A stretch of DNA of 41,628 nt from Patescibacteria group bacterium (GCA_018816485.1 JAHIVL010000073.1:1-41628), one strand, 5' to 3'. Counted from the stretch's first letter, positions 4,510 through 22,979 are shown. Notes: generated by a model from the letters alone, not told the origin. Made by a program: numbers and translations.

Positions 4510-5624
4510 AAAACCAATCTAATCAAATACTAATAATAGGCTCTGGAATTTCAGGCTCAACACTGGCTGAAAGATATGCTTCTATTGGAAAAAAAGTTTT
4601 AGTCTTAGAAAAACGAAATCATGTTGGTGGAAATTGTTATGACCTTATTAATAAGGATGGCTTACTAGTTTCTAAATATGGAGCTCATATATTTCATACA
4701 AATAATAAAGATGTTTGGGAATATTTACAAAAGTTTTCTAGTTGGAAACCATATAGTCATAAAGTTAAAGCTTTTATAGGTGGAAAGTTAGTTCCTGTGC
4801 CAGTAAATATTGAAACAGTAAACATATTATATAAGCTAGATATAAAAAATAAACCAGAAATGCAAGACTGGCTTTATAAGAACCAAGTTAAAATAACTAA
4901 TCCTAAAAATAGTGAGGAAGTTGCCTTAAGTAGAGTCGGAAAAGATCTTTATGAAAAGATGTTTAAAAATTACACAATAAAACAATGGGGGAAACATCCA
5001 AAAGAGTTAGACTCTTCGATTATTTCTAGAATTCCAGTGAGAATAGATTTTGAAGACAGGTATTCTTCAGATAATTATCAAGCTCAACCAGTCGGTGGAT
5101 ATACAAAAATATTTAAAAATATGTTATCTAGTAAGAATATTGAGATTAGGCTAAATACTGATTTTTTTGAGTTTAAAAAAGAAAATAATTCTGACGATTT
5201 TGAAAAAGTTTTTTACACAGGTGCAGCAGATCATTTTTTTGATTTCTGTTTTAGTAAAAAAGGATTGGGATATAGGTCTCTCAAGTTTGAGTTTGAAACA
5301 CATAATAAAGAATTTTTTCAAGATCATGCAGTTGTTAACTTTCCAAATGATCATGAATATACGAGGATAGTTGAATACAAGCACATTACTGGGCAAAAAC
5401 ACTCCAAAACGACTATTTCCAAAGAGTATCCTAATAGTGGTAACGAACCTTATTATCCTATGTTAACTGAGGATAATATGCTGTTATATTCAAAGTACAA
5501 AAAGCTTATTATAAAGTTAAGCAATGTTCATTTTATTGGAAGGTTAGCAGAGTTTAAATACATTAATATGGATGAGGCATTTGGGAATGCTTTGGAGTTG
5601 TTTTATTCTTTAGAAAAAGATTAG
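4506..5624 (+). CDS. glf: UDP-galactopyranose mutase
   Basis: FAD-binding 'ILIIGSGISGSTLAERYA..VLVLEKRNHVGGNCYD', plus 'GAHIFHTN', 'YTIKQWG', 'EPYYPM' and 'FIGRLAEFKYINMDEA', colinear with Glf. ATGA overlap with the upstream gene. Confidence 0.9.
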   Translation: MKNQSNQILIIGSGISGSTLAERYASIGKKVLVLEKRNHVGGNCYDLINKDGLLVSKYGAHIFHTNNKDVWEYLQKFSSWKPYSHKVKAFIGGKLVPVPVNIETVNILYKLDIKNKPEMQDWLYKNQVKITNPKNSEEVALSRVGKDLYEKMFKNYTIKQWGKHPKELDSSIISRIPVRIDFEDRYSSDNYQAQPVGGYTKIFKNMLSSKNIEIRLNTDFFEFKKENNSDDFEKVFYTGAADHFFDFCFSKKGLGYRSLKFEFETHNKEFFQDHAVVNFPNDHEYTRIVEYKHITGQKHSKTTISKEYPNSGNEPYYPMLTEDNMLLYSKYKKLIIKLSNVHFIGRLAEFKYINMDEAFGNALELFYSLEKD

Positions 5625-6811
5625 TGTTTCTCAATTATATAGCCAATAGAATTAACTTTATTTTTCCACGAATTATCTATTGCTAATTGTTGTTGTTTTT
5701 TTTGATATTCTTTTGGCCATGGTTTTTTTAAGAGTAATTTAATATGTTTTTCCCATTCATTTGCAGTGTCACCAATCTTTATTAGGTTTTTAAACTTTGT
5801 TTGTTTAAGTTCTTCAATAGGAGTACTGACCACTGGTTTTTTCATATAAAAATATTCAAAAAGTTTCATTGGATAACAATATCGATTAAAATCATATGAA
5901 ATGTCATATGGAATCGTGCAAACATCTAGTTGTTGAATTATTGATCCAATTTCATCTTTGGGTTGCGAATCGAACCACATGCAATTTTTATACTTAGTAA
6001 GTTCCTCAAAATTTTTTAAGAAATTATGATTTTTATTTATAGAAATGTTTGGTTCGTGATGCTTTAAACCTATAAAAACAAAATTCCATTGCTGATTTTG
6101 TCTAATCAAATTTTTTAAAAGATCGAAGTCTAATCTTTGACTAATTTGACCAATGAAGCCAATTAAATGCTTGTAAGTCTTAAGTTTGATATTACTTTTT
6201 TGCTTAATATTTTGAAAATTTTTATAATTGAATCCTTGTGGAACTACAGCGATTGGCTTATTTGTTAAAATCTTAAATTGATTTTTTAAAGAATGTGAAT
6301 TTACTGAGATGATATTAGATTTTTTGAGTAGAAGTTGTTTTTGTTTAGTAAGTTTCTTTTGTTTTTGTGAGTTTGGTGAGGTATGGAAGTCGACAATATC
6401 AGTAATAACTTTCCAGAAAGGTAGCCTTACTTCAATAAACTGGACTAATTGGGGGAAAAACATCCATATTAAATGGTTTTCAGCATTAAGATATTTCAAG
6501 TTTAATATAAGTTGAATTGTAATCGAATAAATAATTGAGTTAATGTTTTTAATTAATTTAATTCTTTTGCCAGGAATAAGGTAAATAGGATGTAAATAAT
6601 AAATATTATTAATATTTTTTGAAAAATTTATTACTTGTTTAGAAATAATTTTTTTAAGAATTTCTTTAATAGACAAAGATTCTGTGTGATATATTATATA
6701 GACTTTGTTATTGTTTTTTTTAGCTAGTACATTGGCGGTTTGTTCTAGATAATCACAAACTTGATTTTGATGAGAAATATTGGGAATTAATATAACTGAG
6801 TTTTTAATCAT
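5621..6811 (-). CDS. GT-B fold glycosyltransferase (GT1/GT4-like, TuaH-like)
   Basis: C-terminal 'YCYPMKLFEYFYMKKPVVSTPIEEL' resembles the E-x7-E region of retaining GT-B enzymes. Its stop overlaps the glf stop convergently (TTAG at 5621-5624). Confidence 0.6.
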   Translation of the reverse strand: MIKNSVILIPNISHQNQVCDYLEQTANVLAKKNNNKVYIIYHTESLSIKEILKKIISKQVINFSKNINNIYYLHPIYLIPGKRIKLIKNINSIIYSITIQLILNLKYLNAENHLIWMFFPQLVQFIEVRLPFWKVITDIVDFHTSPNSQKQKKLTKQKQLLLKKSNIISVNSHSLKNQFKILTNKPIAVVPQGFNYKNFQNIKQKSNIKLKTYKHLIGFIGQISQRLDFDLLKNLIRQNQQWNFVFIGLKHHEPNISINKNHNFLKNFEELTKYKNCMWFDSQPKDEIGSIIQQLDVCTIPYDISYDFNRYCYPMKLFEYFYMKKPVVSTPIEELKQTKFKNLIKIGDTANEWEKHIKLLLKKPWPKEYQKKQQQLAIDNSWKNKVNSIGYIIEKH

Positions 6812-6822
6812 ATATTCTGATT

Positions 6823-8334
6823 ATGAAAAATAATAAGTTTATAGTAATATTTTCTAAACTAAACAAAGATCTAGATTCTTCGGCTATTATAGCAGTTAAC
6901 GTATACTTTTTAGTTTCTCTAGTTATTTCTTCTACAAAACTGTCTTTTCTATTTAGTTTTATTTTTTTTGTTTTTCTAGCTTATTGTTATTCATTTTATA
7001 AAGCTATGGTTTATAGTATGCTTCCATTGTTATATTTTGGCTTAGGTCAAATTCATTCGTTTGTCGCTGTGCCGGCTTCGGCAGTATATAGCCTACAATA
7101 CTGGGAAGGTAGGCAACTAGTTTTTTCTTTCTCTCCATTTTTTATTATTTTTTTATCTGGCTTAGTATTATTATTTATTTTGTGGAAGAAAATTAATATT
7201 AGGTTCTTATTACATGAAAAATTATTATTAATTTTGTTTGGCGCGTTTGGACTTTCATTTGTTGACTCTGTGATACCTCTTTTAAGTTTTGGTTTTACTT
7301 TTGGAGAACTAATGCTGATTGTGTGGGGAGTTTATTTAATTTTGGCAACAAAAAAAGTTTCCAAATTAAAATTCAAAAAAGTAATATTTACTTTAATAAT
7401 AATATTCACTGGAATTTTATTACAAAATTCGCTTGTTGTATTTGGACAAATCGTTAAAGGTGGTTCTTTAGGATTAGCAATAGAAAGAACAGAAGTTGCG
7501 CCCGTTTTTGGTCTAGGAGCCGACGAAAGAGCCGACGTTTTTAGGCCTTTTGGTTTTAATGTTCATCCAAATGGACTAGCTAATGAAGTTATTCTAGTTG
7601 GAATGAGTATTTTAATTTTAATTCAGTATTTATCAGAAAAATTTACTATAAGAAAAAAGGTAATAAACAAATTGTCGGCAGGTGTTATTTTGGTATCATT
7701 ATTGATAGTGATTTTTACTCTTAGCAGAGCAGCATTTGTAGCAATTTTTGCATCGTTATTATTTTTTGCATATAGGCACCCCAGGCTACTTAAAAAAATT
7801 AAAAATTTACAACAACAACTATTAATCAAATCTAACCCATGGTTTAAAGTTATTGTATTGATAATATTGGGAATTTTGGTTTTTAAGTTAACTAATAGGT
7901 TATTTGACAGTATTTATTCATTTACTGAATTGGGTGGAGTTACTACTAGAACCGAGCAGTATCGCGAGGCAATTGAAGTATTTAAAAGCTCTCCATTGTT
8001 TGGGGTAGGAGTTGGCATGTTCATGCCAGCTTCTTATCAATTGTTTCCAGATGGAATTATGAGATATTTTCCTGAACCAGTTCACAATGGCTATCTATTA
8101 TTTTTAGTCGAAAGAGGCTTGGCATCTACAATAACTTATTTAGTTTTTGCAATTTATTTTTATTTAGAAATTATCAGGCTAAAGCTTTCTAGAATCATGA
8201 ATACTATGATATACTCAGGCATTATTTCTAGTTTTGTAATGATGTTATTTCATCCGCAAAACAATTTTTTAAGTTTTCTAGTAGTCTTAATTTTATTTAT
8301 TGTTCATTATGAAAAAACAACTTCTAAAATATAA
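6823..8334 (+). CDS. O-antigen ligase/polymerase-like (Wzy_C domain) polytopic membrane protein
   Basis: Ten or more hydrophobic segments. 'FTLSRAAFVAIFASLLFFAY', 'PLFGVGVGMF' and 'PVHNGYLLFLVERGLAS' match the Wzy_C core. Confidence 0.75.
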   Translation: MKNNKFIVIFSKLNKDLDSSAIIAVNVYFLVSLVISSTKLSFLFSFIFFVFLAYCYSFYKAMVYSMLPLLYFGLGQIHSFVAVPASAVYSLQYWEGRQLVFSFSPFFIIFLSGLVLLFILWKKINIRFLLHEKLLLILFGAFGLSFVDSVIPLLSFGFTFGELMLIVWGVYLILATKKVSKLKFKKVIFTLIIIFTGILLQNSLVVFGQIVKGGSLGLAIERTEVAPVFGLGADERADVFRPFGFNVHPNGLANEVILVGMSILILIQYLSEKFTIRKKVINKLSAGVILVSLLIVIFTLSRAAFVAIFASLLFFAYRHPRLLKKIKNLQQQLLIKSNPWFKVIVLIILGILVFKLTNRLFDSIYSFTELGGVTTRTEQYREAIEVFKSSPLFGVGVGMFMPASYQLFPDGIMRYFPEPVHNGYLLFLVERGLASTITYLVFAIYFYLEIIRLKLSRIMNTMIYSGIISSFVMMLFHPQNNFLSFLVVLILFIVHYEKTTSKI

Positions 8335-16079: not shown

Positions 16080-17186
16080 ATGATAGAACATATTAAGTCG
16101 ATATTTGCAAAGATATTCCTAGCAGTAATATCTGTTACCTTGACACTAATTTTACTAGCTGTCGCTTTCAACTTATATCTTGAAAAGACTAGATATATAG
16201 GTGATGGAAATATGGGTTTTACATTGGATTATGCTGTTTTTAACCTAGATTATATTTTCTGGCAAAAATATTTTTGTGATTTGGAAGATAATTGTCCCGA
16301 AACTGTTTCTTATGTTGATAGCTTACTAATTCATCCGCAAAATATTTTTGGTTCTGAATATTCACCAACATGCAAGAAAATTTTGTTTTTAGGAGATTCA
16401 TTTTCAACAGCTCCCTTTAGTGAGTTTAGTTATGGTGATTACTTTACTGAAAAGCTATCTGAGGAATTTCATCATTGTTTTATTTCTTTGCATTTGGCTT
16501 CTGGTGGAGTAGGTAATAGTCAAGAATTAGCTAAGCTAGAGGATAATATTGAGGTGATAGATCCAGATTTAGTTATTTGGCAATTTTATTGGAATGATTT
16601 AGTTAATAATGTTCAGTTTTCTGTCCATGACATTGATAGAAATTTATTAAAAAGAAAGAAAGCATGGAACAATGCGTTTTTTATATCTGGTTTTCTTAAC
16701 CAACACATTCCATTTTTAAGAACTTCTGTCATAGGAAATTATTTTTTTGAAGAGTCAACAAAAAAAGACTTTTTTAGAACTTGGCCAGCAGATATATATA
16801 CCGATGATGTGGATGAATATAACAAGGTTTTTGTTCCCTTGCTTTTAGAATCAGGAAAAAAACTAGCTGCAAATAACTCAGCTAAATTACTAACTACTAT
16901 TTCTCCATTAGAATGTTATCTAGATCAAGAAAAGACATGTGATGAATGGAGTTTAGGTGATCATATAATACTAGAAGGTATTCTGATTGAAAACAGTATG
17001 TTTATTAGCATGGAATCTACTAGTAGTGCTACTATATTTGTTGAAAACAACTTGAATAATCTTTTTTCAAACGATGATATGAAAAACTATGGTTCGAGGC
17101 ATCTTTCTGAGCAAGGAGAAATTTATTTTGGAACAAACTTATTCTTAAACTCCAAAGAAATAATAAAGAATTTAATTTTTCATTAA
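16080..17186 (+). CDS. Membrane-anchored SGNH/GDSL hydrolase-family protein (esterase or O-acyl-modifying)
   Basis: N-terminal TM. Block I 'ILFLGDSFS', block II 'ASGGVGNS', block III 'FYWNDL', and a C-terminal 'GSRHLSEQG' in place of the DxxH block. Confidence 0.55.
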   Translation: MIEHIKSIFAKIFLAVISVTLTLILLAVAFNLYLEKTRYIGDGNMGFTLDYAVFNLDYIFWQKYFCDLEDNCPETVSYVDSLLIHPQNIFGSEYSPTCKKILFLGDSFSTAPFSEFSYGDYFTEKLSEEFHHCFISLHLASGGVGNSQELAKLEDNIEVIDPDLVIWQFYWNDLVNNVQFSVHDIDRNLLKRKKAWNNAFFISGFLNQHIPFLRTSVIGNYFFEESTKKDFFRTWPADIYTDDVDEYNKVFVPLLLESGKKLAANNSAKLLTTISPLECYLDQEKTCDEWSLGDHIILEGILIENSMFISMESTSSATIFVENNLNNLFSNDDMKNYGSRHLSEQGEIYFGTNLFLNSKEIIKNLIFH

Positions 17187-17326
17187 AATAACATATAAAC
17201 AAAAGGACTCACAGGAGAAGTAGTAGAAAAAGCTACTAGTAGTCCAAAAATCACAAACACAATTATTGGAGGCATTAACCACCACTTTTTATTTTTCATT
17301 AAATATTCTATTAGCTCTTTAATCAT
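17183..17326 (-). CDS. 47-aa DUF5989-like small membrane protein (absent from the supplied ORF track)
   Basis: My own translation of the reverse strand gives MIKELIEYLMKNKKWWLMPPIIVFVIFGLLVAFSTTSPVSPFVYMLF*. The 'KKWWL.P.I....G.L...PF.Y.LF' pattern matches my memory of DUF5989, a family usually found beside carbamoyltransferases. It lies 26 nt downstream of the SGNH gene on the same strand. Confidence 0.6.
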   Translation of the reverse strand: MIKELIEYLMKNKKWWLMPPIIVFVIFGLLVAFSTTSPVSPFVYMLF

Positions 17327-17352
17327 AACTTCTTTCTTTTTTGTTAATAATA

Positions 17353-18312
17353 CTAATTACAAATCTTTTTTTCTTTTTGTAAATAATTAAAAATATTTTT
17401 GGCTATAACAGTATGACCTTCTTTATTTGGGTGTTTATCCGGTAATTGTTCATTTTGTTTTGGTTGTGGTACTAAGGAAATAAAAGTTGCTATTTTATAT
17501 CGGTTTTGCCATTTTTCAATTATTTTTTCGTTTTCTTTTAATAGGTTCTTATAATAGAAAACAATTGTATTATCAGTATTATCTAGATTAAAAAATATGT
17601 CGAAGTTGTATTCTGAAAACTGTACGAGCTCATTTACAGAGTATTCTTTTAACAATTGTTGATATGCTTTGTTATAACAAATTGCATATCCATTAAAGTT
17701 AGATATGTCTTCTATGCAATCATTAATTAGTGGTTGCATGAGTTCGTTATATCTAGAAAAACCCGTGCTACTATCAAACCATAAAATTAGATTCGGATCG
17801 TATTTTTGGCCAAGCTCTTTATATCTTTGGACAATATATTGAATATCATATCCAGCCATGCCAAGATTAATAACTTCAAAGTTTTTATGCTTACAATTTT
17901 GATTATTGTCATTATTGATCAACACTTCTAGCTGCTCGCTCCAGCTGTCTTCAACATTTACGTGATGGCCATATGTGAATGAATCTCCTAAAGTAATTAT
18001 TCTATAGGTGTCCGTTGGTTTATTGATAGAGTAATCATTTATTTCTCTTAGACCATCATTGTTAATATGATATGTAACTTCATAGGAAAGCCAATCTGGT
18101 TTTTCTATCCATTCTTTTGGCTCTAGTTTCCAGTAGTATTTTAGTTCTTCACTTTGTCCAATAATTGTATTTGATTTATCTATGCCGGTTACTATGTTTG
18201 TTCCAAGAATATTATTTTGAGTAATTTTATTTTGAGAAACTTTATAAATAAAAAGAGTTCCGAGTAAAATTTCAGTTACTACAATAGTAATCAAAAATAT
18301 TTTTTTCTTCAC
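17353..18312 (-). CDS. Membrane-anchored SGNH/GDSL hydrolase-family protein
   Basis: N-terminal TM. Block I 'IITLGDSFTYG', block II 'NLGMAGYD', block V 'DKHPNKEGHTVIAKNIF'. 4-nt overlap with the carbamoyltransferase stop. Confidence 0.65.
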   Translation of the reverse strand: MKKKIFLITIVVTEILLGTLFIYKVSQNKITQNNILGTNIVTGIDKSNTIIGQSEELKYYWKLEPKEWIEKPDWLSYEVTYHINNDGLREINDYSINKPTDTYRIITLGDSFTYGHHVNVEDSWSEQLEVLINNDNNQNCKHKNFEVINLGMAGYDIQYIVQRYKELGQKYDPNLILWFDSSTGFSRYNELMQPLINDCIEDISNFNGYAICYNKAYQQLLKEYSVNELVQFSEYNFDIFFNLDNTDNTIVFYYKNLLKENEKIIEKWQNRYKIATFISLVPQPKQNEQLPDKHPNKEGHTVIAKNIFNYLQKEKKICN

Positions 18313-20009
18313 TTTTTAACAACATAATTATCTATCACCAAGTAATCTATATCAGTACTCAAAAAACACCTGATTGCATCATTTGGAGTGCAAACGATTG
18401 GCTCACCCCTGACATTAAAAGAAGTGTTGATAATTATTGGAATCCCAGTTTTATCTTTATAGGATTTTACCAAGTCATAGTATTTTGGGTTATCTTTTCT
18501 GATCAGAGTTTCGAGTCTACCACTATTATCAACGTGGGCCACTGCAGGGACTTGTTTAAGGCCGATCTTTTTAAAAGGATATACCATTAGCATCCATCTT
18601 GCAGAAGGAGAGATATAGTCATCAGTTTCAAAATAATTCTTTGTATCTTCTTCAAGAATCACTGGCGCAAAGGGTCTAAACATTTCTCTCTTTTTAACTT
18701 TTTCATTAATGATATCTCTCATTTTTGTTGTAGTTGCCGAAGCTAAAATGCTTCTATTTCCAAGAGCTCGTGGTCCCCATTCCATTCTTCCTTGAAACCA
18801 ACCGATTACTTTTTTAGATTTAATTAATTTAGATACTTTATCAACCAATTTTTTATCACTTTCAATTCGTACGTATTTTAATTTATATTTTTTTAATTCT
18901 TTTTCAATTTGATACCATTTATATTCTGGTCCCAAATATGGATGAAAATCCTTCTTGTTCACTAATTTGCTTGTATGCTGAGTGTAGGAATACATAGCGG
19001 CACCCATAGCGGCACCAGCATCACTAGGATCAGGGGGAATAAATAACCTTTCAAACTGTGTATTAGATAGAATTTTTCCATTTAAAACAGAATTAAGAGC
19101 AACTCCACCCGCAAAGCATAGATTTTTTGTTTTGTAGGTTTTATATGCTGTATTTAAGAGGTTAACAACTACTTCTTCCAGCTTTTTCTGCAATGCTGCA
19201 GCAATATTTTCATGATATTTTTTTACTGGTCCCTCCTTTTTTCTAGGAGGATGGCCAAATAATTCACTCATTTTTTCTGAAGGCATATGATCAGCCCAAT
19301 CAAAATCAAAATATTTCATGTTTAGTTTAAAACTACCATCAGGAAATACCTCAATAATTTTGTCAAAATGTTTTTTAAATGGTTTGGGATCACCATAAGC
19401 CGCTAGGCCCATAACCTTGTATTCGCTGTCATTGGCACTAAATCCCAGATAAGTGGTTAAAGTGCTGTAAAGCAAACCAAGTGAGTGAGGAAAGTAAATT
19501 TCTTTGTCAATTTGAATTTTTTCATTAGATCCGTATCCAATGGTAGTAGTGGACCACTCACCAACTCCGTCAACTGTAACAATCGCTGATTTTTTAAATG
19601 GTGCAAGATAAAAAGCACTAGCCGCATGCGAAAGGTGGTGATCAATAAAATTGACTTCGCCAAAATAATTCACCTTTTCTTCAAGTGTTTTTTTAATTTG
19701 TAATCGAGATCCAAACCATGGCCCAATAGTGTTGACAAACTGTTTGTAACTTTTTGGGAAATTTTCTAGATGTTGAGAAATAATTCTCTCAAACTTAATC
19801 AAGGGTTTTTCATAAAAAGAAACTAAGTCAACCTCGTTTGCAGAAATATTTAAACTATCAAGGCAAAACTCAATAGCTTTTAGAGGAAAACTATTATCAT
19901 GTTTAATGCGGGTAAATCTTTCTTCAGCAGCTCCTGCAACAATTTTCCCATCTTTAATGATGCAAGCAGCACTATCGTGGTAATAGCAAGATATTCCTAG
20001 TACAATCAT
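18309..20009 (-). CDS. Carbamoyltransferase (NodU/CmcH family)
   Basis: 'GISCYYHDSAACIIKDGKIVAGAAEERFTRIKHDNSFP', 'HHLSHAASAFY', 'GGVALNSVLNGKI', 'MEWGPRALGNRSILA', 'RPFAPVILEE' and 'IIINTSFNVRGEPIV'. Confidence 0.9.
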   Translation of the reverse strand: MIVLGISCYYHDSAACIIKDGKIVAGAAEERFTRIKHDNSFPLKAIEFCLDSLNISANEVDLVSFYEKPLIKFERIISQHLENFPKSYKQFVNTIGPWFGSRLQIKKTLEEKVNYFGEVNFIDHHLSHAASAFYLAPFKKSAIVTVDGVGEWSTTTIGYGSNEKIQIDKEIYFPHSLGLLYSTLTTYLGFSANDSEYKVMGLAAYGDPKPFKKHFDKIIEVFPDGSFKLNMKYFDFDWADHMPSEKMSELFGHPPRKKEGPVKKYHENIAAALQKKLEEVVVNLLNTAYKTYKTKNLCFAGGVALNSVLNGKILSNTQFERLFIPPDPSDAGAAMGAAMYSYTQHTSKLVNKKDFHPYLGPEYKWYQIEKELKKYKLKYVRIESDKKLVDKVSKLIKSKKVIGWFQGRMEWGPRALGNRSILASATTTKMRDIINEKVKKREMFRPFAPVILEEDTKNYFETDDYISPSARWMLMVYPFKKIGLKQVPAVAHVDNSGRLETLIRKDNPKYYDLVKSYKDKTGIPIIINTSFNVRGEPIVCTPNDAIRCFLSTDIDYLVIDNYVVKK

Positions 20010-20020
20010 ATTTTAAAATA

Positions 20021-20212
20021 TTAATACATTTTTACAGAGTTTTTATTAGAAAGATATTCTTTCCAGCTTGTTTTTGACTGGTTATTATTAAGGAATTTTT
20101 TATTAACTAGTCTTGAAAATAAAAATGTCAAGCCAATTCCTAAAATAAATACAAAGTTTAGGGCAATTATTTCAATTACTTTATCAATTTTAGTTTTAAA
20201 CTTTTTTAGCAT
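20021..20212 (-). CDS. 63-aa single-TM protein, possibly SxtJ-like (C-terminal portion only)
   Basis: 'VIEIIALNFVFILGIGLTFLFSRLVNKKFL......SWKEY' resembles the tail of SxtJ-family proteins that accompany carbamoyltransferases (from memory, weak). It lies 11 nt upstream of the carbamoyltransferase. Confidence 0.35.
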   Translation of the reverse strand: MLKKFKTKIDKVIEIIALNFVFILGIGLTFLFSRLVNKKFLNNNQSKTSWKEYLSNKNSVKMY

Positions 20213-20237
20213 TACTTGATAATATCATGAACATTAA

Positions 20238-20513
20238 TTTTTTTTTGTTTTAACACCAGACATATTGACATTTGGTACCCCAACAGAGAATACATTAGGA
20301 GATTCGCTTGGATCAATAGTTAGGAAGAATAATTTTCCATATTTTAATTCAAGTCCAGGAATGATGCGGATTAATAGCAGTTTGCCTGGTTCTGAATCAT
20401 TAGACTTTTCAGATTTATACACTGGTCAAGATGGTTATCATCTTAATGCATACGGAAATAAGGTTTGCGCGTTTCTAGTTGCTGATTTTATAAGCAGTAA
20501 AATTGAAATCTAA
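20238..20513 (+). pseudogene. Truncated C-terminal remnant of an SGNH hydrolase gene
   Basis: The frame is open from 20238 (stop at 20235-20237) and the first candidate start is TTG at 20265. It encodes only '..TPDILTFGTPTEN..' and '..GQDGYHLNAYGNKVCAFLVADFI', a block III-like and a block V (DxxH) region. There is no block I Ser, and no room upstream because a minus-strand gene ends at 20212. Confidence 0.45.
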
Positions 20514-20533
20514 AATTATGTTACCATTATTAT

Positions 20534-21793
20534 ATGACTTTATCGCCTAAAAAAAGTATTTTTTTATTTCTTTTTGCGTCTTTTCAAGTTTTAATCTTTT
20601 TTTTATTCTACACCTCATACCAATTCATAATAATTTCATTGTTTTTAGTTTTTTTATTTTTTTATTTTTGGTTTTTCAAATTAAAAATTACATTTGATTT
20701 GAGAGTGGGAATGTTGTGGTTGGGATTAATACTTTTTTTATGTATATCTTCAATTTTTAGTCATAGCTTGCCACTAAGTTTAGATAATATCGTTTTTTAC
20801 GCATCTTCATTTTGTATCTTTATATTTTTTAAAAGCTTGGGACTTAGTAAAATATTTTCAAAATCTCAGATAGCAGCTACTTTTTTATTAGTGGGTTTTG
20901 TTCTTTCAATGTTTTTTATACTATTCTTTAGTTTTCCAGAAACATCTGAATTTTTGCCTCCAGTTAATTTTTTTACAACGCATTATGGGCACAATCATTT
21001 TGCAGCTCTGCTTTTATTTTTAATTCCTTTGAGTTGGTGGTTTATCAGTTCTAGTGAATACAAATTTTTTGCTTATAGAAAGTCGATATTAGTTCTTTTT
21101 TACACTTTAATTATTTTTTCATTTGGTAGATTTGCAACTTTGTTAACAATAATTCAACTTTTTTTCATACCTGGAATAATCAACAAAAAATTCTTTAAGA
21201 AAATTTATCTTTATCTGGTGGGTATTATCTTGGCAAGTTCATTAGTGATTGGAGCGATGGTTTCATTAAACTCCGTTTCAAATTGTTTAGTAAATGAGTT
21301 CAAAATTCAGCTATGCAAACCAATCACAAACGAAGCTAGACCAGAGTATTTTAAACAGGCCGTAAGAAGTTTAAAAGCTTATCCTTTATTTGGATATGGT
21401 CCTGGAAGTTTTTCTTTAATATCCAAGAGATTTAACACAACATCGCAAAGTTTTTCGATATATGCTCATAACAACTTTCTTCAGATTTTTTCAGAATCTG
21501 GAGTTATTGTTGGAATTATCTATGTGCTGTTAATTGGATTGTTGTATAAAAATATGTTTTCTGTTTTGAAAAAAAGCAAAGATGGTAATAGATTAAATAG
21601 TTTTTTATATCTAGGATTAGTAAGTTTATTAATAAATTCATTTATTGATTTCGATTGGGAACTATTTCCTATTTTTCAGATGGTAATTATTTTTATAGCT
21701 GTTGTTCTTTGGGATTATCAGGGAGCATACTTCGATAATAAAAGAATATTTTTAGTATTAAAAAAATCTATTAATTACTTTTTATTTTTCTAA
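20534..21793 (+). CDS. O-antigen ligase/polymerase-like (Wzy_C domain) polytopic membrane protein
   Basis: 'SFGRFATLLTIIQLFF', 'GYGPGSFSLISKRF' and 'YAHNNFLQIFSESGVIVGIIYVLLIGLL' match the Wzy_C core, with 10 or more TM segments. Confidence 0.75.
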   Translation: MTLSPKKSIFLFLFASFQVLIFFLFYTSYQFIIISLFLVFLFFYFWFFKLKITFDLRVGMLWLGLILFLCISSIFSHSLPLSLDNIVFYASSFCIFIFFKSLGLSKIFSKSQIAATFLLVGFVLSMFFILFFSFPETSEFLPPVNFFTTHYGHNHFAALLLFLIPLSWWFISSSEYKFFAYRKSILVLFYTLIIFSFGRFATLLTIIQLFFIPGIINKKFFKKIYLYLVGIILASSLVIGAMVSLNSVSNCLVNEFKIQLCKPITNEARPEYFKQAVRSLKAYPLFGYGPGSFSLISKRFNTTSQSFSIYAHNNFLQIFSESGVIVGIIYVLLIGLLYKNMFSVLKKSKDGNRLNSFLYLGLVSLLINSFIDFDWELFPIFQMVIIFIAVVLWDYQGAYFDNKRIFLVLKKSINYFLFF

Positions 21794-22326
21794 TGGTGAT
21801 GCTGATTGGTCTTGGATTTATTAATTTTGTTACGAAAATTCTAATTAATGGCGGTAATGAGGAAATAACATTTAGAATTTTTCCTTACTTCTACTCACAA
21901 TCTGAATTCTTTTTGACTGAAGCAGATATTTCAGAAGAACAAACTGATTTATTATATAAAATTTATGAGAATCACGATAAATTTATTTTGAATAATATTG
22001 AAAAAGAACCAAATATAGATAAAAAAATTGAACTATATAAAAAACTCATGGTGGTAAGGTTGTACGATGTTACAAACACAAATTATTATCAGCTCTTGCT
22101 AGACCAGGGCATGTATGTCAGCTTGGGAGAGGCTTCATACAAAGGTCTTTCTATGCTGATAGAAAATGAAAATAATGGAATGGGGCAGTCATACATAGTA
22201 AAAGAAAACATAATTAATTATCTTTTATTGTCTGCTCATTGGCACGAAGAAAATGGTGAGTATGATTTGTATAAAAAATACTATGATTTTATTGAGTCAA
22301 TTTGGAATAAAGATTGGAGTAATTAA
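21793..22326 (+). CDS. Hypothetical protein with an N-terminal TM, coupled to the Wzy_C gene
   Basis: TAATG overlap with the upstream gene. The helical, Tyr/Glu-rich sequence has no family I recognise. Confidence 0.4.
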   Translation: MVMLIGLGFINFVTKILINGGNEEITFRIFPYFYSQSEFFLTEADISEEQTDLLYKIYENHDKFILNNIEKEPNIDKKIELYKKLMVVRLYDVTNTNYYQLLLDQGMYVSLGEASYKGLSMLIENENNGMGQSYIVKENIINYLLLSAHWHEENGEYDLYKKYYDFIESIWNKDWSN

Positions 22327-22979
22327 TAGTCACCTTTTAATAGCTGCTTGATGATTATTTTATAAAAAGTATTGAAAATTAGAGAAAGGTCATTTTTTAA
22401 CGACCAATTGAGTTTTGATTCATTTCTAACAATCAAGTCATTGATTTCGTTTTTTTCTAGTTTTCTCCATTCATTTAATGATTGGTAGCGATTTGGAGAT
22501 AGTGCCCATTTTGATATTATTCCTGGCCTAACTTTATATCTAAAATCCCAAGAAGAAGGAAGGCTATTAGCTTCGTTAACTGGTAGGGGGCGAGGTCCAA
22601 CTAAACTCATTTCTCCTTTTAGAATATTAATTATTTGTGGAATTTCATCTATACCAAAATTTGAAAGAGTTTTGCCAATAATAGTAAATCTTGGGTCGTT
22701 TTTAATTTTAAACATTGGGTAAGGAGAAATATTTAGTTTTTTGAGTTTGTCTTGTTGTGAGCTAGCTCCACGCTTCATAGTTCTAAGCTTGTAAATAGTA
22801 AATATTTTCTTGTCTTTTCCTATTCTTTTTTGTTTAAAAATAACTGGACATCCAATTAACAATACAAAAAAGGGATAAATAAATACAAAAATTGGTATGA
22901 AAAATATTAGACCAATGATTGATAAAATTATGTCAAAAATTCTTTTATTATCAATCATAGTTTGATCCCGGGTGGACAA
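22323..22979 (-). CDS. Small monotopic phosphoglycosyl transferase (bacterial sugar transferase, WbaP C-terminal/PglC-like), the pathway-initiating enzyme
   Basis: 'RIFDIILSIIGLIFFIPIF', 'VIFKQKRIGKDKKIFTIYKLRTM' and 'DEIPQIINILKGEMSLVGPRPLP'. Confidence 0.9.
   Translation of the reverse strand: MSTRDQTMIDNKRIFDIILSIIGLIFFIPIFVFIYPFFVLLIGCPVIFKQKRIGKDKKIFTIYKLRTMKRGASSQQDKLKKLNISPYPMFKIKNDPRFTIIGKTLSNFGIDEIPQIINILKGEMSLVGPRPLPVNEANSLPSSWDFRYKVRPGIISKWALSPNRYQSLNEWRKLEKNEINDLIVRNESKLNWSLKNDLSLIFNTFYKIIIKQLLKGDY

Follow-up and report, generated by a model that had tools for sequence, protein, structure and literature searches.

An sxtIJKL-type membrane carbamoylation module in the surface-glycan locus of a Patescibacteria group bacterium, with a candidate tyrosine shuttle in its DUF5989 protein

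What do the small membrane proteins SxtJ and SxtK do beside their carbamoyltransferases? Both have carried the label 'unknown' since the description of the saxitoxin cluster (PMC2679770), the tables of which place sxtI, sxtJ, sxtK and sxtL consecutively, SxtL being GDSL-like (PMC2679770, PMC2885083). The linkage of this trio to carbamoyltransferases is already known from the saxitoxin literature; the literature that we searched has nothing on DUF5989, the family of SxtK-type proteins, and nothing tying SxtK to DltX or to a shuttle motif. Here we analyse a stretch of 41,628 nucleotides (nt) from a Patescibacteria group bacterium (GCA_018816485.1, JAHIVL010000073.1:1-41628), hereafter the window, in which positions 17183-20212 hold four genes of this kind. 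The source genome counts 1.04 Mb in 103 contigs and is estimated to be 97.6% complete; the GC content of the window is about 30%, and the named homologues of its genes belong to Pacebacteria, Gottesmanbacteria and Doudnabacteria. The four genes form an sxtIJKL-type membrane carbamoylation module within a glycan locus of a bacterium of the Candidate Phyla Radiation (CPR), and their carbamoyltransferase is genetically bound to a pair of microproteins as well as to anchored SGNH enzymes. The explanation that we favour, still tentatively, is a carbamoyl relay, in which the group would pass from the cytoplasmic enzyme to a tyrosine of DUF5989, then to an anchored SGNH transferase and finally to the surface glycan.

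The elements of the module, together with a convergent gene at its end, are as follows (lengths in amino acids, aa; ORF, open reading frame; the evidence for each is given in brackets):

20021..20212, minus strand: mini-SxtJ, a one-helix membrane protein of 63 aa (ORF, homologues, profile comparison)
18309..20009, minus strand: NodU/CmcH/TobZ-type O-carbamoyltransferase of 566 aa, soluble and predicted to be cytoplasmic (Pfam, full-length matches)
17353..18312, minus strand: N-terminally anchored SGNH/GDSL enzyme of 319 aa (AlphaFold2 model, Foldseek, conserved residues)
17183..17326, minus strand: DUF5989 (SxtK-type) microprotein of 47 aa (PF19451)
17186..17203, minus strand: FxYxxF motif, the last six DUF5989 codons, F-V-Y-M-L-F (homologue alignment)
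16080..17186, plus strand: second membrane-anchored SGNH/GDSL-type protein, 368 aa (homologue names, PF00657, conserved residues)

ORF calling reproduces exactly the coordinates of the four minus-strand genes and the spacing given by an earlier reading of this DNA from its sequence alone (the sequence-only reading): a gap of 11 nt between the 63-aa and 566-aa genes, a 4-nt overlap of the 319-aa SGNH start with the carbamoyltransferase stop, and a gap of 26 nt before the 47-aa gene. In sxt terms the order is J-I-L-K. Both small ORFs are real genes under purifying selection. That they might instead be chance open frames in AT-rich DNA could be argued from the GC content of about 30%, at which short open frames are common, and from the 63-aa ORF, which has no Pfam match and a single word-index homologue; conservation refutes this, and we give the idea practically no weight. 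Indeed, measured by the Nei-Gojobori method against the closest relative, the Logan contig L031, dN/dS is 0.18 for the 63-aa ORF and 0.04 for the 47-aa ORF, with 0.06 for the carbamoyltransferase. L031 keeps the same order of 63-aa gene, enzyme and 47-aa gene, the enzyme being 90% and the 63-aa gene 83% identical. Moreover, wherever the module occurs within the family, homologues of both small ORFs stand at the corresponding place, the mini-SxtJ family counts 890 cluster representatives, and the 47-aa ORF matches DUF5989 at 61 bits.

The 566-aa protein carries both carbamoyltransferase domains above the gathering cut-off, in order and spanning its full length (Carbam_trans_N, 283.7 bits, 3.4e-84, cut-off 24; Carbam_trans_C, 228.8 bits, 3.8e-68, cut-off 27), and it aligns full-length to the solved 7xb6, NovN, GdmN and TobZ (E 1e-78 to 1e-93). 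On the NCBIfam model NF041651, the NodU equivalog, it scores 160.6 bits for a cut-off of 1000, and it is therefore a member of the superfamily rather than a NodU orthologue. Carbam_trans_N and DUF5989 are each single-copy in the genome. Comparison was extended to 80 carbamoyltransferase loci from many bacterial and archaeal phyla, gathered through a carbamoyltransferase alignment, among which an SxtJ-type gene is found at 76 and DUF5989 at 65, bearing out the statement in the sequence-only reading that the trio recurs across phyla. Its picture of a NodU/CmcH carbamoyltransferase with two small membrane partners stands in so far as both partners are conserved and one is DUF5989; the other lies outside Pfam SxtJ, as described below.

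The match of the 47-aa protein to DUF5989 (PF19451) reaches 61.1 bits (cut-off 27) over model positions 3-49 of 49, so that what had been called DUF5989-like is DUF5989. The gene lies one gene away from the carbamoyltransferase, and the protein consists of a basic amphipathic N-terminus (KNKKWW), one transmembrane (TM) helix and an uncharged C-terminal tail. Across the family the mean net charge is +2.9 on the N-terminal side of the helix and about 0 in the tail, and the positive-inside rule predicts an N-in, C-out topology. An alignment of the 65 proteins found at the 80 loci gives A-P-F-I-Y-(T/A)-(L/I)-F for the C-terminal eight residues, the window copy ending in SPFVYMLF; F(-6) and Y(-4) are each present in 64 of these 65 homologues, from many bacterial and archaeal phyla, and F(-1) in 63. 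In the genome, which is rich in F and Y, F.Y..F closes 4 of the 10,690 frames that have 35 codons or more. The three others were rejected as further shuttles, being antisense frames inside long genes, and DUF5989 is the only real gene in the genome with this ending.

FxYxxF is the acyl-shuttle motif of DltX and of the C-termini of the MBOAT PatA and its relatives, where the invariant Tyr hands the acyl group over to the catalytic Ser of the partner, an SGNH enzyme; the NgPatA peptide, for example, is FIYANF (PMC12148441). The DltX protein of L. plantarum counts 49 aa and ends in FIYNEF, and its tail binds a pocket of DltD, a protein with a single N-terminal TM helix and an SGNH domain outside (PMC13653941). 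Furthermore, an acetyl-Tyr hexapeptide serves as donor for PatB (PMC13653941, PMC12148441). As judged from sequence, the likeness of DUF5989 to DltX is one of motif and architecture, short of demonstrated homology. No DltX scored above the cut-off in 121 genomes sampled from the phylum of a metagenome-assembled genome (MAG) labelled Bacillota. In the source genome, at its 97.6% completeness, there is no match to MBOAT (PF03062), and thus DUF5989 is not the partner of an MBOAT; the idea that it serves one encoded elsewhere in the genome was rejected on the same ground. One AT3 gene is present, on another contig.

Support for the carbamoyl relay comes from the gene set with its spacing and selection, the conservation of the trio across the 80 loci, the FxYxxF motif in DUF5989 (64/65), its DltX-like size and predicted topology, the anchored build that the SGNH enzyme shares with DltD, the enrichment of SGNH genes at the module and their place on both sides of DUF5989, the archaeal loci with the window order, the sxtL precedent, the lack of an MBOAT, the glycan locus, and a natural fusion of the enzyme with SxtJ. 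With the amphipathic heads of DUF5989 and mini-SxtJ in the cytoplasm as its docking site, the carbamoyltransferase would activate carbamate as carbamoyl-AMP, the formation of which by TobZ is established for the family. The carbamoyl group would be placed on the invariant Tyr44 of the DUF5989 tail, which would offer O-carbamoyl-Tyr to the catalytic Ser111 of the anchored extracytoplasmic SGNH enzyme. The latter would move the group onto a hydroxyl of the exported glycan, and exchangeable SGNH paralogues would set the acceptor specificity. With more reserve, we also put forward a general form of the idea: DUF5989/SxtK might be a carbamoyl-tyrosine shuttle, sxtIJKL-type modules a third, MBOAT/AT3-independent route by which exported molecules are decorated across the membrane, and SxtL-type SGNH proteins terminal carbamoyltransferases rather than decarbamoylases. 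If this were true, the version found in CPR bacteria and DPANN archaea would show that SxtJ can be reduced to one helix, and SxtJ would therefore be a scaffold rather than a catalytic conduit.

The proposed acceptor of the tyrosine-bound group is the 319-aa protein. It scores 22 bits on Lipase_GDSL_2, under the cut-off of 32.9, which many of its homologues pass. Its AlphaFold2 model (pLDDT, predicted local distance difference test, 92.5) is confident and places a small beta unit and an SGNH core behind the N-terminal helix formed by residues 2-32, and Foldseek retrieves TesA and other GDSL esterases (E 2.5e-7, probability 1.0). Five residues, G109-D110-S111, D292 and H294, are invariant in 56 homologues, block V having the spacing D-x-H instead of the usual D-x-x-H. 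A TM helix spans about residues 5-23 and is preceded by KKK, and the catalytic domain is predicted to lie outside the membrane. A second SGNH gene, missed by the sequence-only reading, occupies 16080-17186 on the plus strand and converges on the 47-aa gene with a 4-nt overlap. Its homologues are named SGNH/GDSL and carry PF00657; it keeps G105-D106-S107, N172-D173 and H341, the block V Asp not being kept, and an orthologue stands at the same position in L031. These two ORFs, 17353-18312 and 16080-17186, are the only GDSL_2-like ones in the genome, and they flank DUF5989.

The association of SGNH enzymes with the module extends well beyond this genome. A hidden Markov model (HMM) of the window SGNH subfamily finds 21 ORFs in the 80 loci, 18 of which lie inside the module or at most 300 nt away, in 17 loci. 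In a Pfam tally of immediate and interior module neighbours, Lipase_GDSL_2 comes first with 23 of 133 and ALGX adds six more of the 133; among controls taken at the fourth gene away, 2 of 92 are SGNH (Fisher p 2e-4). The co-occurrence statistics suggested in the sequence-only reading come out as an enrichment, 23/133 vs 2/92. Its description of the SGNH gene as inserted inside the trio does not hold: with 18 of 21 ORFs at the module and sxtL as precedent, it is a recurrent fourth component. Several loci have an SGNH gene between module genes, and two archaeal loci, L050 and L054, show the exact window order of mini-SxtJ, carbamoyltransferase, SGNH and DUF5989. The in-module SGNH protein of L054 matches the AlgX acetyltransferase model at 36 bits, above the cut-off, and other in-module SGNH proteins carry TPR or discoidin sugar-binding domains.

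At least one SGNH gene touches the module in 7 of 9 family-level loci. In G001, a genome of the same genus, the slot is taken by another SGNH protein of only distant relationship, and a 48%-identical orthologue of the window SGNH lies convergent downstream. SGNH is a usual companion, and which paralogue occupies the slot varies between close relatives. We also observed two or three different SGNH paralogues around DUF5989 in L025 (G001; 5003-7165) and L029 (6151-9126), and the paralogue between enzyme and DUF5989 varies among genomes of one genus.

The same SGNH enzymes could be given the part traditionally assigned to SxtL, with the carbamoyltransferase adding carbamoyl directly and the anchored hydrolases stripping carbamoyl or acetyl groups from the mature glycan, which would tune or recycle the decoration. 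SxtL was proposed as a decarbamoylase for its GDSL likeness (PMC2885083), the best Foldseek matches of the window protein are hydrolases (TesA, acetyl-mannan esterase), and the Gly region of block II is conserved (N149-L150-G), unlike in the transferases PatB and OatA, for which an atypical block II is reported (PMC12148441). However, a remover needs no translational coupling to the adder, such as the 4-nt overlap seen here, some in-module SGNH proteins resemble the AlgX acetyltransferase, and the FxYxxF tail is left unaccounted for. We regard such glycan editing as improbable.

The other microprotein, of 63 aa, begins with an amphipathic stretch, continues in a single TM helix that contains a GxG motif, and closes with the aromatic C-terminus KMY; its conserved residues are L18, G25, G27, F40 and W50. 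The expectation that an SxtJ model would recognise it fails, no match to Pfam SxtJ (PF19588) being found even at E<=1. Its relatives of 141-152 aa do not match that model either, and a direct Pfam bridge from mini-SxtJ to SxtJ was rejected for this reason. By hhalign, the scores of which TM composition may inflate, the 63-aa family aligns with short SxtJ-like proteins at 94.2% (E 1e-7), these short forms align with full-length SxtJ at 98.9% (E 1e-17), and the direct comparison of the 63-aa family with full-length SxtJ gives 65.6%. The profile comparison ties the 63-aa family to the C-terminal third of SxtJ. Same-order relatives have proteins of 71-78 aa upstream of the enzyme, one of them scoring 23.8 bits on SxtJ model positions 52-94, and the phylum contains full-length three-helix SxtJ as well as short forms.

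In five archaeal loci, from Woesearchaeota and from MAGs labelled Methanosarcinales, the ORF that precedes the enzyme matches an HMM of the 63-aa family (1e-12 to 5e-15). Four of these five ORFs also match a full-length SxtJ HMM (1e-5 to 1e-8), and the archaeal upstream ORFs end in the SxtJ-like 'SYW...YYRQF'. A profile search with the family returned the 890 cluster representatives mentioned above, 399 of them at E<=1e-10; most members are 79-83 aa long, and some reach 141-152 aa with two extra N-terminal helices. Full-length SxtJ (about 125-145 aa) mostly has three TM helices, compared with one in the 63-aa window protein. The gene, 11 nt upstream of the carbamoyltransferase in the window, lies directly beside the enzyme in all family-level relatives; every same-family module-bearing genome has a one-helix homologue 1-12 nt upstream of the enzyme, and across those genomes the identity of mini-SxtJ drops from 83% to 33% and that of the enzyme from 90% to 60%. 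On this chained profile evidence the 63-aa family is best described as a probable remote sister family of SxtJ, like it in architecture and genomic partner, of which the window copy is the most reduced form.

Three observations on SxtJ-type proteins elsewhere may be added. The long mini-SxtJ members P0166, P0181, P0189 and P0203 share a conserved EEYYRQF end, with Tyr at -4 and Phe at -1; since the window copy ends in KMY and canonical SxtJ in KQF, this Tyr(-4) is not general. In an Omnitrophota MAG (L115:1924-3021, plus strand), one ORF joins a GT2 domain to a stretch that matches the SxtJ HMM at 1e-17 and is unreported by Pfam. An Aegiribacteria MAG (L098:1888-3912, plus strand) encodes a natural 674-aa fusion of Carbam_trans_N, Carbam_trans_C and SxtJ. 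What the latter fusion shows, as read from its sequence, is joint action of the enzyme with an SxtJ whose N-terminus lies inside, and nothing more.

A simpler arrangement would be that the two microproteins only hold the carbamoyltransferase at the inner membrane face, where a sugar linked to undecaprenyl phosphate would be O-carbamoylated before flipping, the SGNH proteins being separate O-acyl esterases or transferases that share the locus. Such a tether would agree with the fusion just described, with the conserved basic amphipathic N-termini of both microproteins, predicted on the cytoplasmic side, and with the solved relatives TobZ, GdmN and NovN, all of which act directly on their substrates. 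It would also fit the many trio loci without an adjacent SGNH gene and the homologues of the window SGNH that occur without a trio nearby. It leaves unexplained, however, why conservation in DUF5989 peaks at the uncharged, near-invariant FxYxxF of the C-terminus, which is predicted to lie outside, as well as the rank of SGNH as by far the most enriched neighbour and the position of the genome's only two SGNH genes on either side of DUF5989. We consider tethering alone rather unlikely.

Several points weigh against the carbamoyl relay. Its loading step is the most demanding: no enzyme able to load a Tyr lying outside the membrane was identified, the carbamoyltransferase being soluble and an MBOAT absent. 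Within the membrane both microproteins lack conserved His, Ser and Cys residues, and mini-SxtJ has a single helix. DUF5989 gives no match to the DltX Pfam model PF12459 (E<=1). For the transfer step, carbamoyl-serine enzymes are usually slow to turn over, and Foldseek places TesA-type esterases nearest, with neither DltD nor PatB singled out, so the fold does not separate a transferase from a hydrolase. The SGNH linkage is also incomplete, as no more than about 20-35% of trio loci have an SGNH gene adjoining, three of the six homologues sampled for the window SGNH are encoded away from any module, and the closest relative, L031, has no SGNH gene between carbamoyltransferase and DUF5989, the convergent one being kept.

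The supply of the group is a further such point, since no OTC/ATC-type domain (OTCace_N; ornithine or aspartate transcarbamylase), carbamate kinase (arcC) or large subunit of carbamoyl-phosphate synthetase (CPSase) was found in the genome. Its sole AA_kinase match has 250 aa, the size of UMP kinase. The closed module-bearing relatives G018 and G038 are also without OTC, and their weak CPSase_L_D2 matches are ATP-grasp proteins of 350-377 aa, which are too short for CPSase. The carbamoyltransferase module is thus present without a recognisable carbamoyl-phosphate source. In another Patescibacteria genome (L037:1390-2579, minus strand), we noticed a 314-aa ORF that has by eye the look of an OTC-type carbamoyltransferase, directly upstream of a 77-aa short SxtJ-like gene, with no NodU-type enzyme within the 3-kb locus.

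The surroundings of the module suggest its target. From Pfam matches and the naming of homologues, the first 25 kb of the window are a surface-glycan locus, and the glycan setting had been rightly recognised from sequence. This part encodes several GT2 and GT4 enzymes, a methyltransferase, a UDP-galactopyranose mutase (Glf), two Wzy_C proteins, a WecG/TagA transferase, two epimerases/dehydratases, two PMT_2-like polytopic proteins, an initiating Bac_transf enzyme and a GT2-YdjC fusion. The module is embedded in a Wzy-type surface-glycan locus of a CPR bacterium, and across phyla its neighbours in the Pfam tally are glycosyltransferases, sugar epimerases and methyltransferases. These data leave little room for a module that carbamoylates a secreted natural product instead of a glycan. 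The type example, sxtIJKL, does stand in an alkaloid cluster (PMC2679770), but scaffold-building enzymes were seen in neither the 1.04-Mb genome nor the window, the genes around the module being for glycan assembly only, and the cross-phylum neighbours are those just named. A small-molecule product is in our view very improbable.

Some observations concern the flank upstream of the module. In L031 and L132 the GT2-YdjC gene directly adjoins the mini-SxtJ gene, unlike in the window, where about 2.7 kb (20213-22950) separates the two and contains an 82-aa ORF, a Wzy_C gene, a 177-aa ORF and the Bac_transf gene; this segment is a rearrangement seam in the glycan island. Within it, at 20238-20513 on the plus strand and between mini-SxtJ and the second Wzy_C gene, lies a frame of 82-91 codons (the 82-aa ORF at 20265-20513), in which a GDS-like 'GDSLGS' and a block-V-like 'DGYHLNAYG' stand only about 42 residues apart. 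The frame has no Pfam match and no homologue among the sequences fetched, and it may be a decayed SGNH remnant or arise by chance. A promoter and terminator scan of 16900-20600 gave nothing beyond the level of shuffled sequence.

The module may also have a history across domains. Outside the CPR family the closest carbamoyltransferases are archaeal, with 51-52% identity (L050-L054, Woesearchaeota and other archaeal MAGs), and these loci carry the same mini-SxtJ partner. In a tree of the carbamoyltransferases, those of the CPR family form a clade (support 100) of which the archaeal clade is the sister group, and all loci with a mini partner lie together on the same side of a single branch (SH-aLRT 92, not starred). 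Because the two clades are sisters and the mini partner is confined to one side of a branch, the tree suggests that the whole module was transferred between CPR bacteria and DPANN-type archaea.

With the match of the DUF5989 tail to the Tyr shuttle of DltX and PatA, which experiments have established, and with the SGNH statistics, the question of SxtJ and SxtK becomes experimentally tractable. The window adds to it a one-helix SxtJ variant that current Pfam models miss and that bounds what SxtJ can do, an SGNH slot between enzyme and shuttle that varies in close relatives, a genome with its whole SGNH complement at the module, and a carrier without a recognisable carbamoyl-phosphate source. 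If the relay is true, O-carbamoylation would rank with acetylation and D-alanylation among the envelope modifications that are made outside the membrane. The surface glycan is where episymbiotic CPR and DPANN cells make contact with the host.

Among known systems, TobZ, GdmN, NovN and NodU share with the window enzyme full-length homology and the two-domain build of a YrdC-like and a Kae1-like part. As far as is known, they act alone on soluble small molecules, whereas the window enzyme is locked to membrane microproteins. AlgX and AlgJ are, like the window SGNH proteins, extracytoplasmic SGNH-like enzymes that decorate exported glycans, and six module neighbours across phyla as well as the in-module SGNH of the archaeal L054 match the ALGX model; the window SGNH has no ALGX match, and the donor system is different. 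Also comparable are the Dlt and PatA-PatB systems, in which, as in the window, a microprotein of about 47-49 aa has a single TM helix and ends in FxYxxF with its invariant Tyr, the SGNH partner combines one N-terminal TM helix with a catalytic domain outside, and the target is an envelope polymer. They differ in that the window genome has no MBOAT and its DUF5989 no DltX Pfam match, and in that a carbamoyltransferase dependent on ATP takes the part of DltA/DltC or acyl-CoA as activator; the group would be carbamoyl, and the acyl-Tyr is here a predicted one. A further counterpart is sxtI-J-K-L itself, where an O-carbamoyltransferase, an SxtJ-type protein, an SxtK/DUF5989 protein and a GDSL/SGNH protein are likewise encoded side by side. 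In contrast to the saxitoxin cluster, the window is a glycan locus in a 1-Mb CPR genome without toxin-scaffold genes, its SxtJ partner is cut to one helix and placed upstream in the order J-I-L-K, and a second SGNH gene converges on K.

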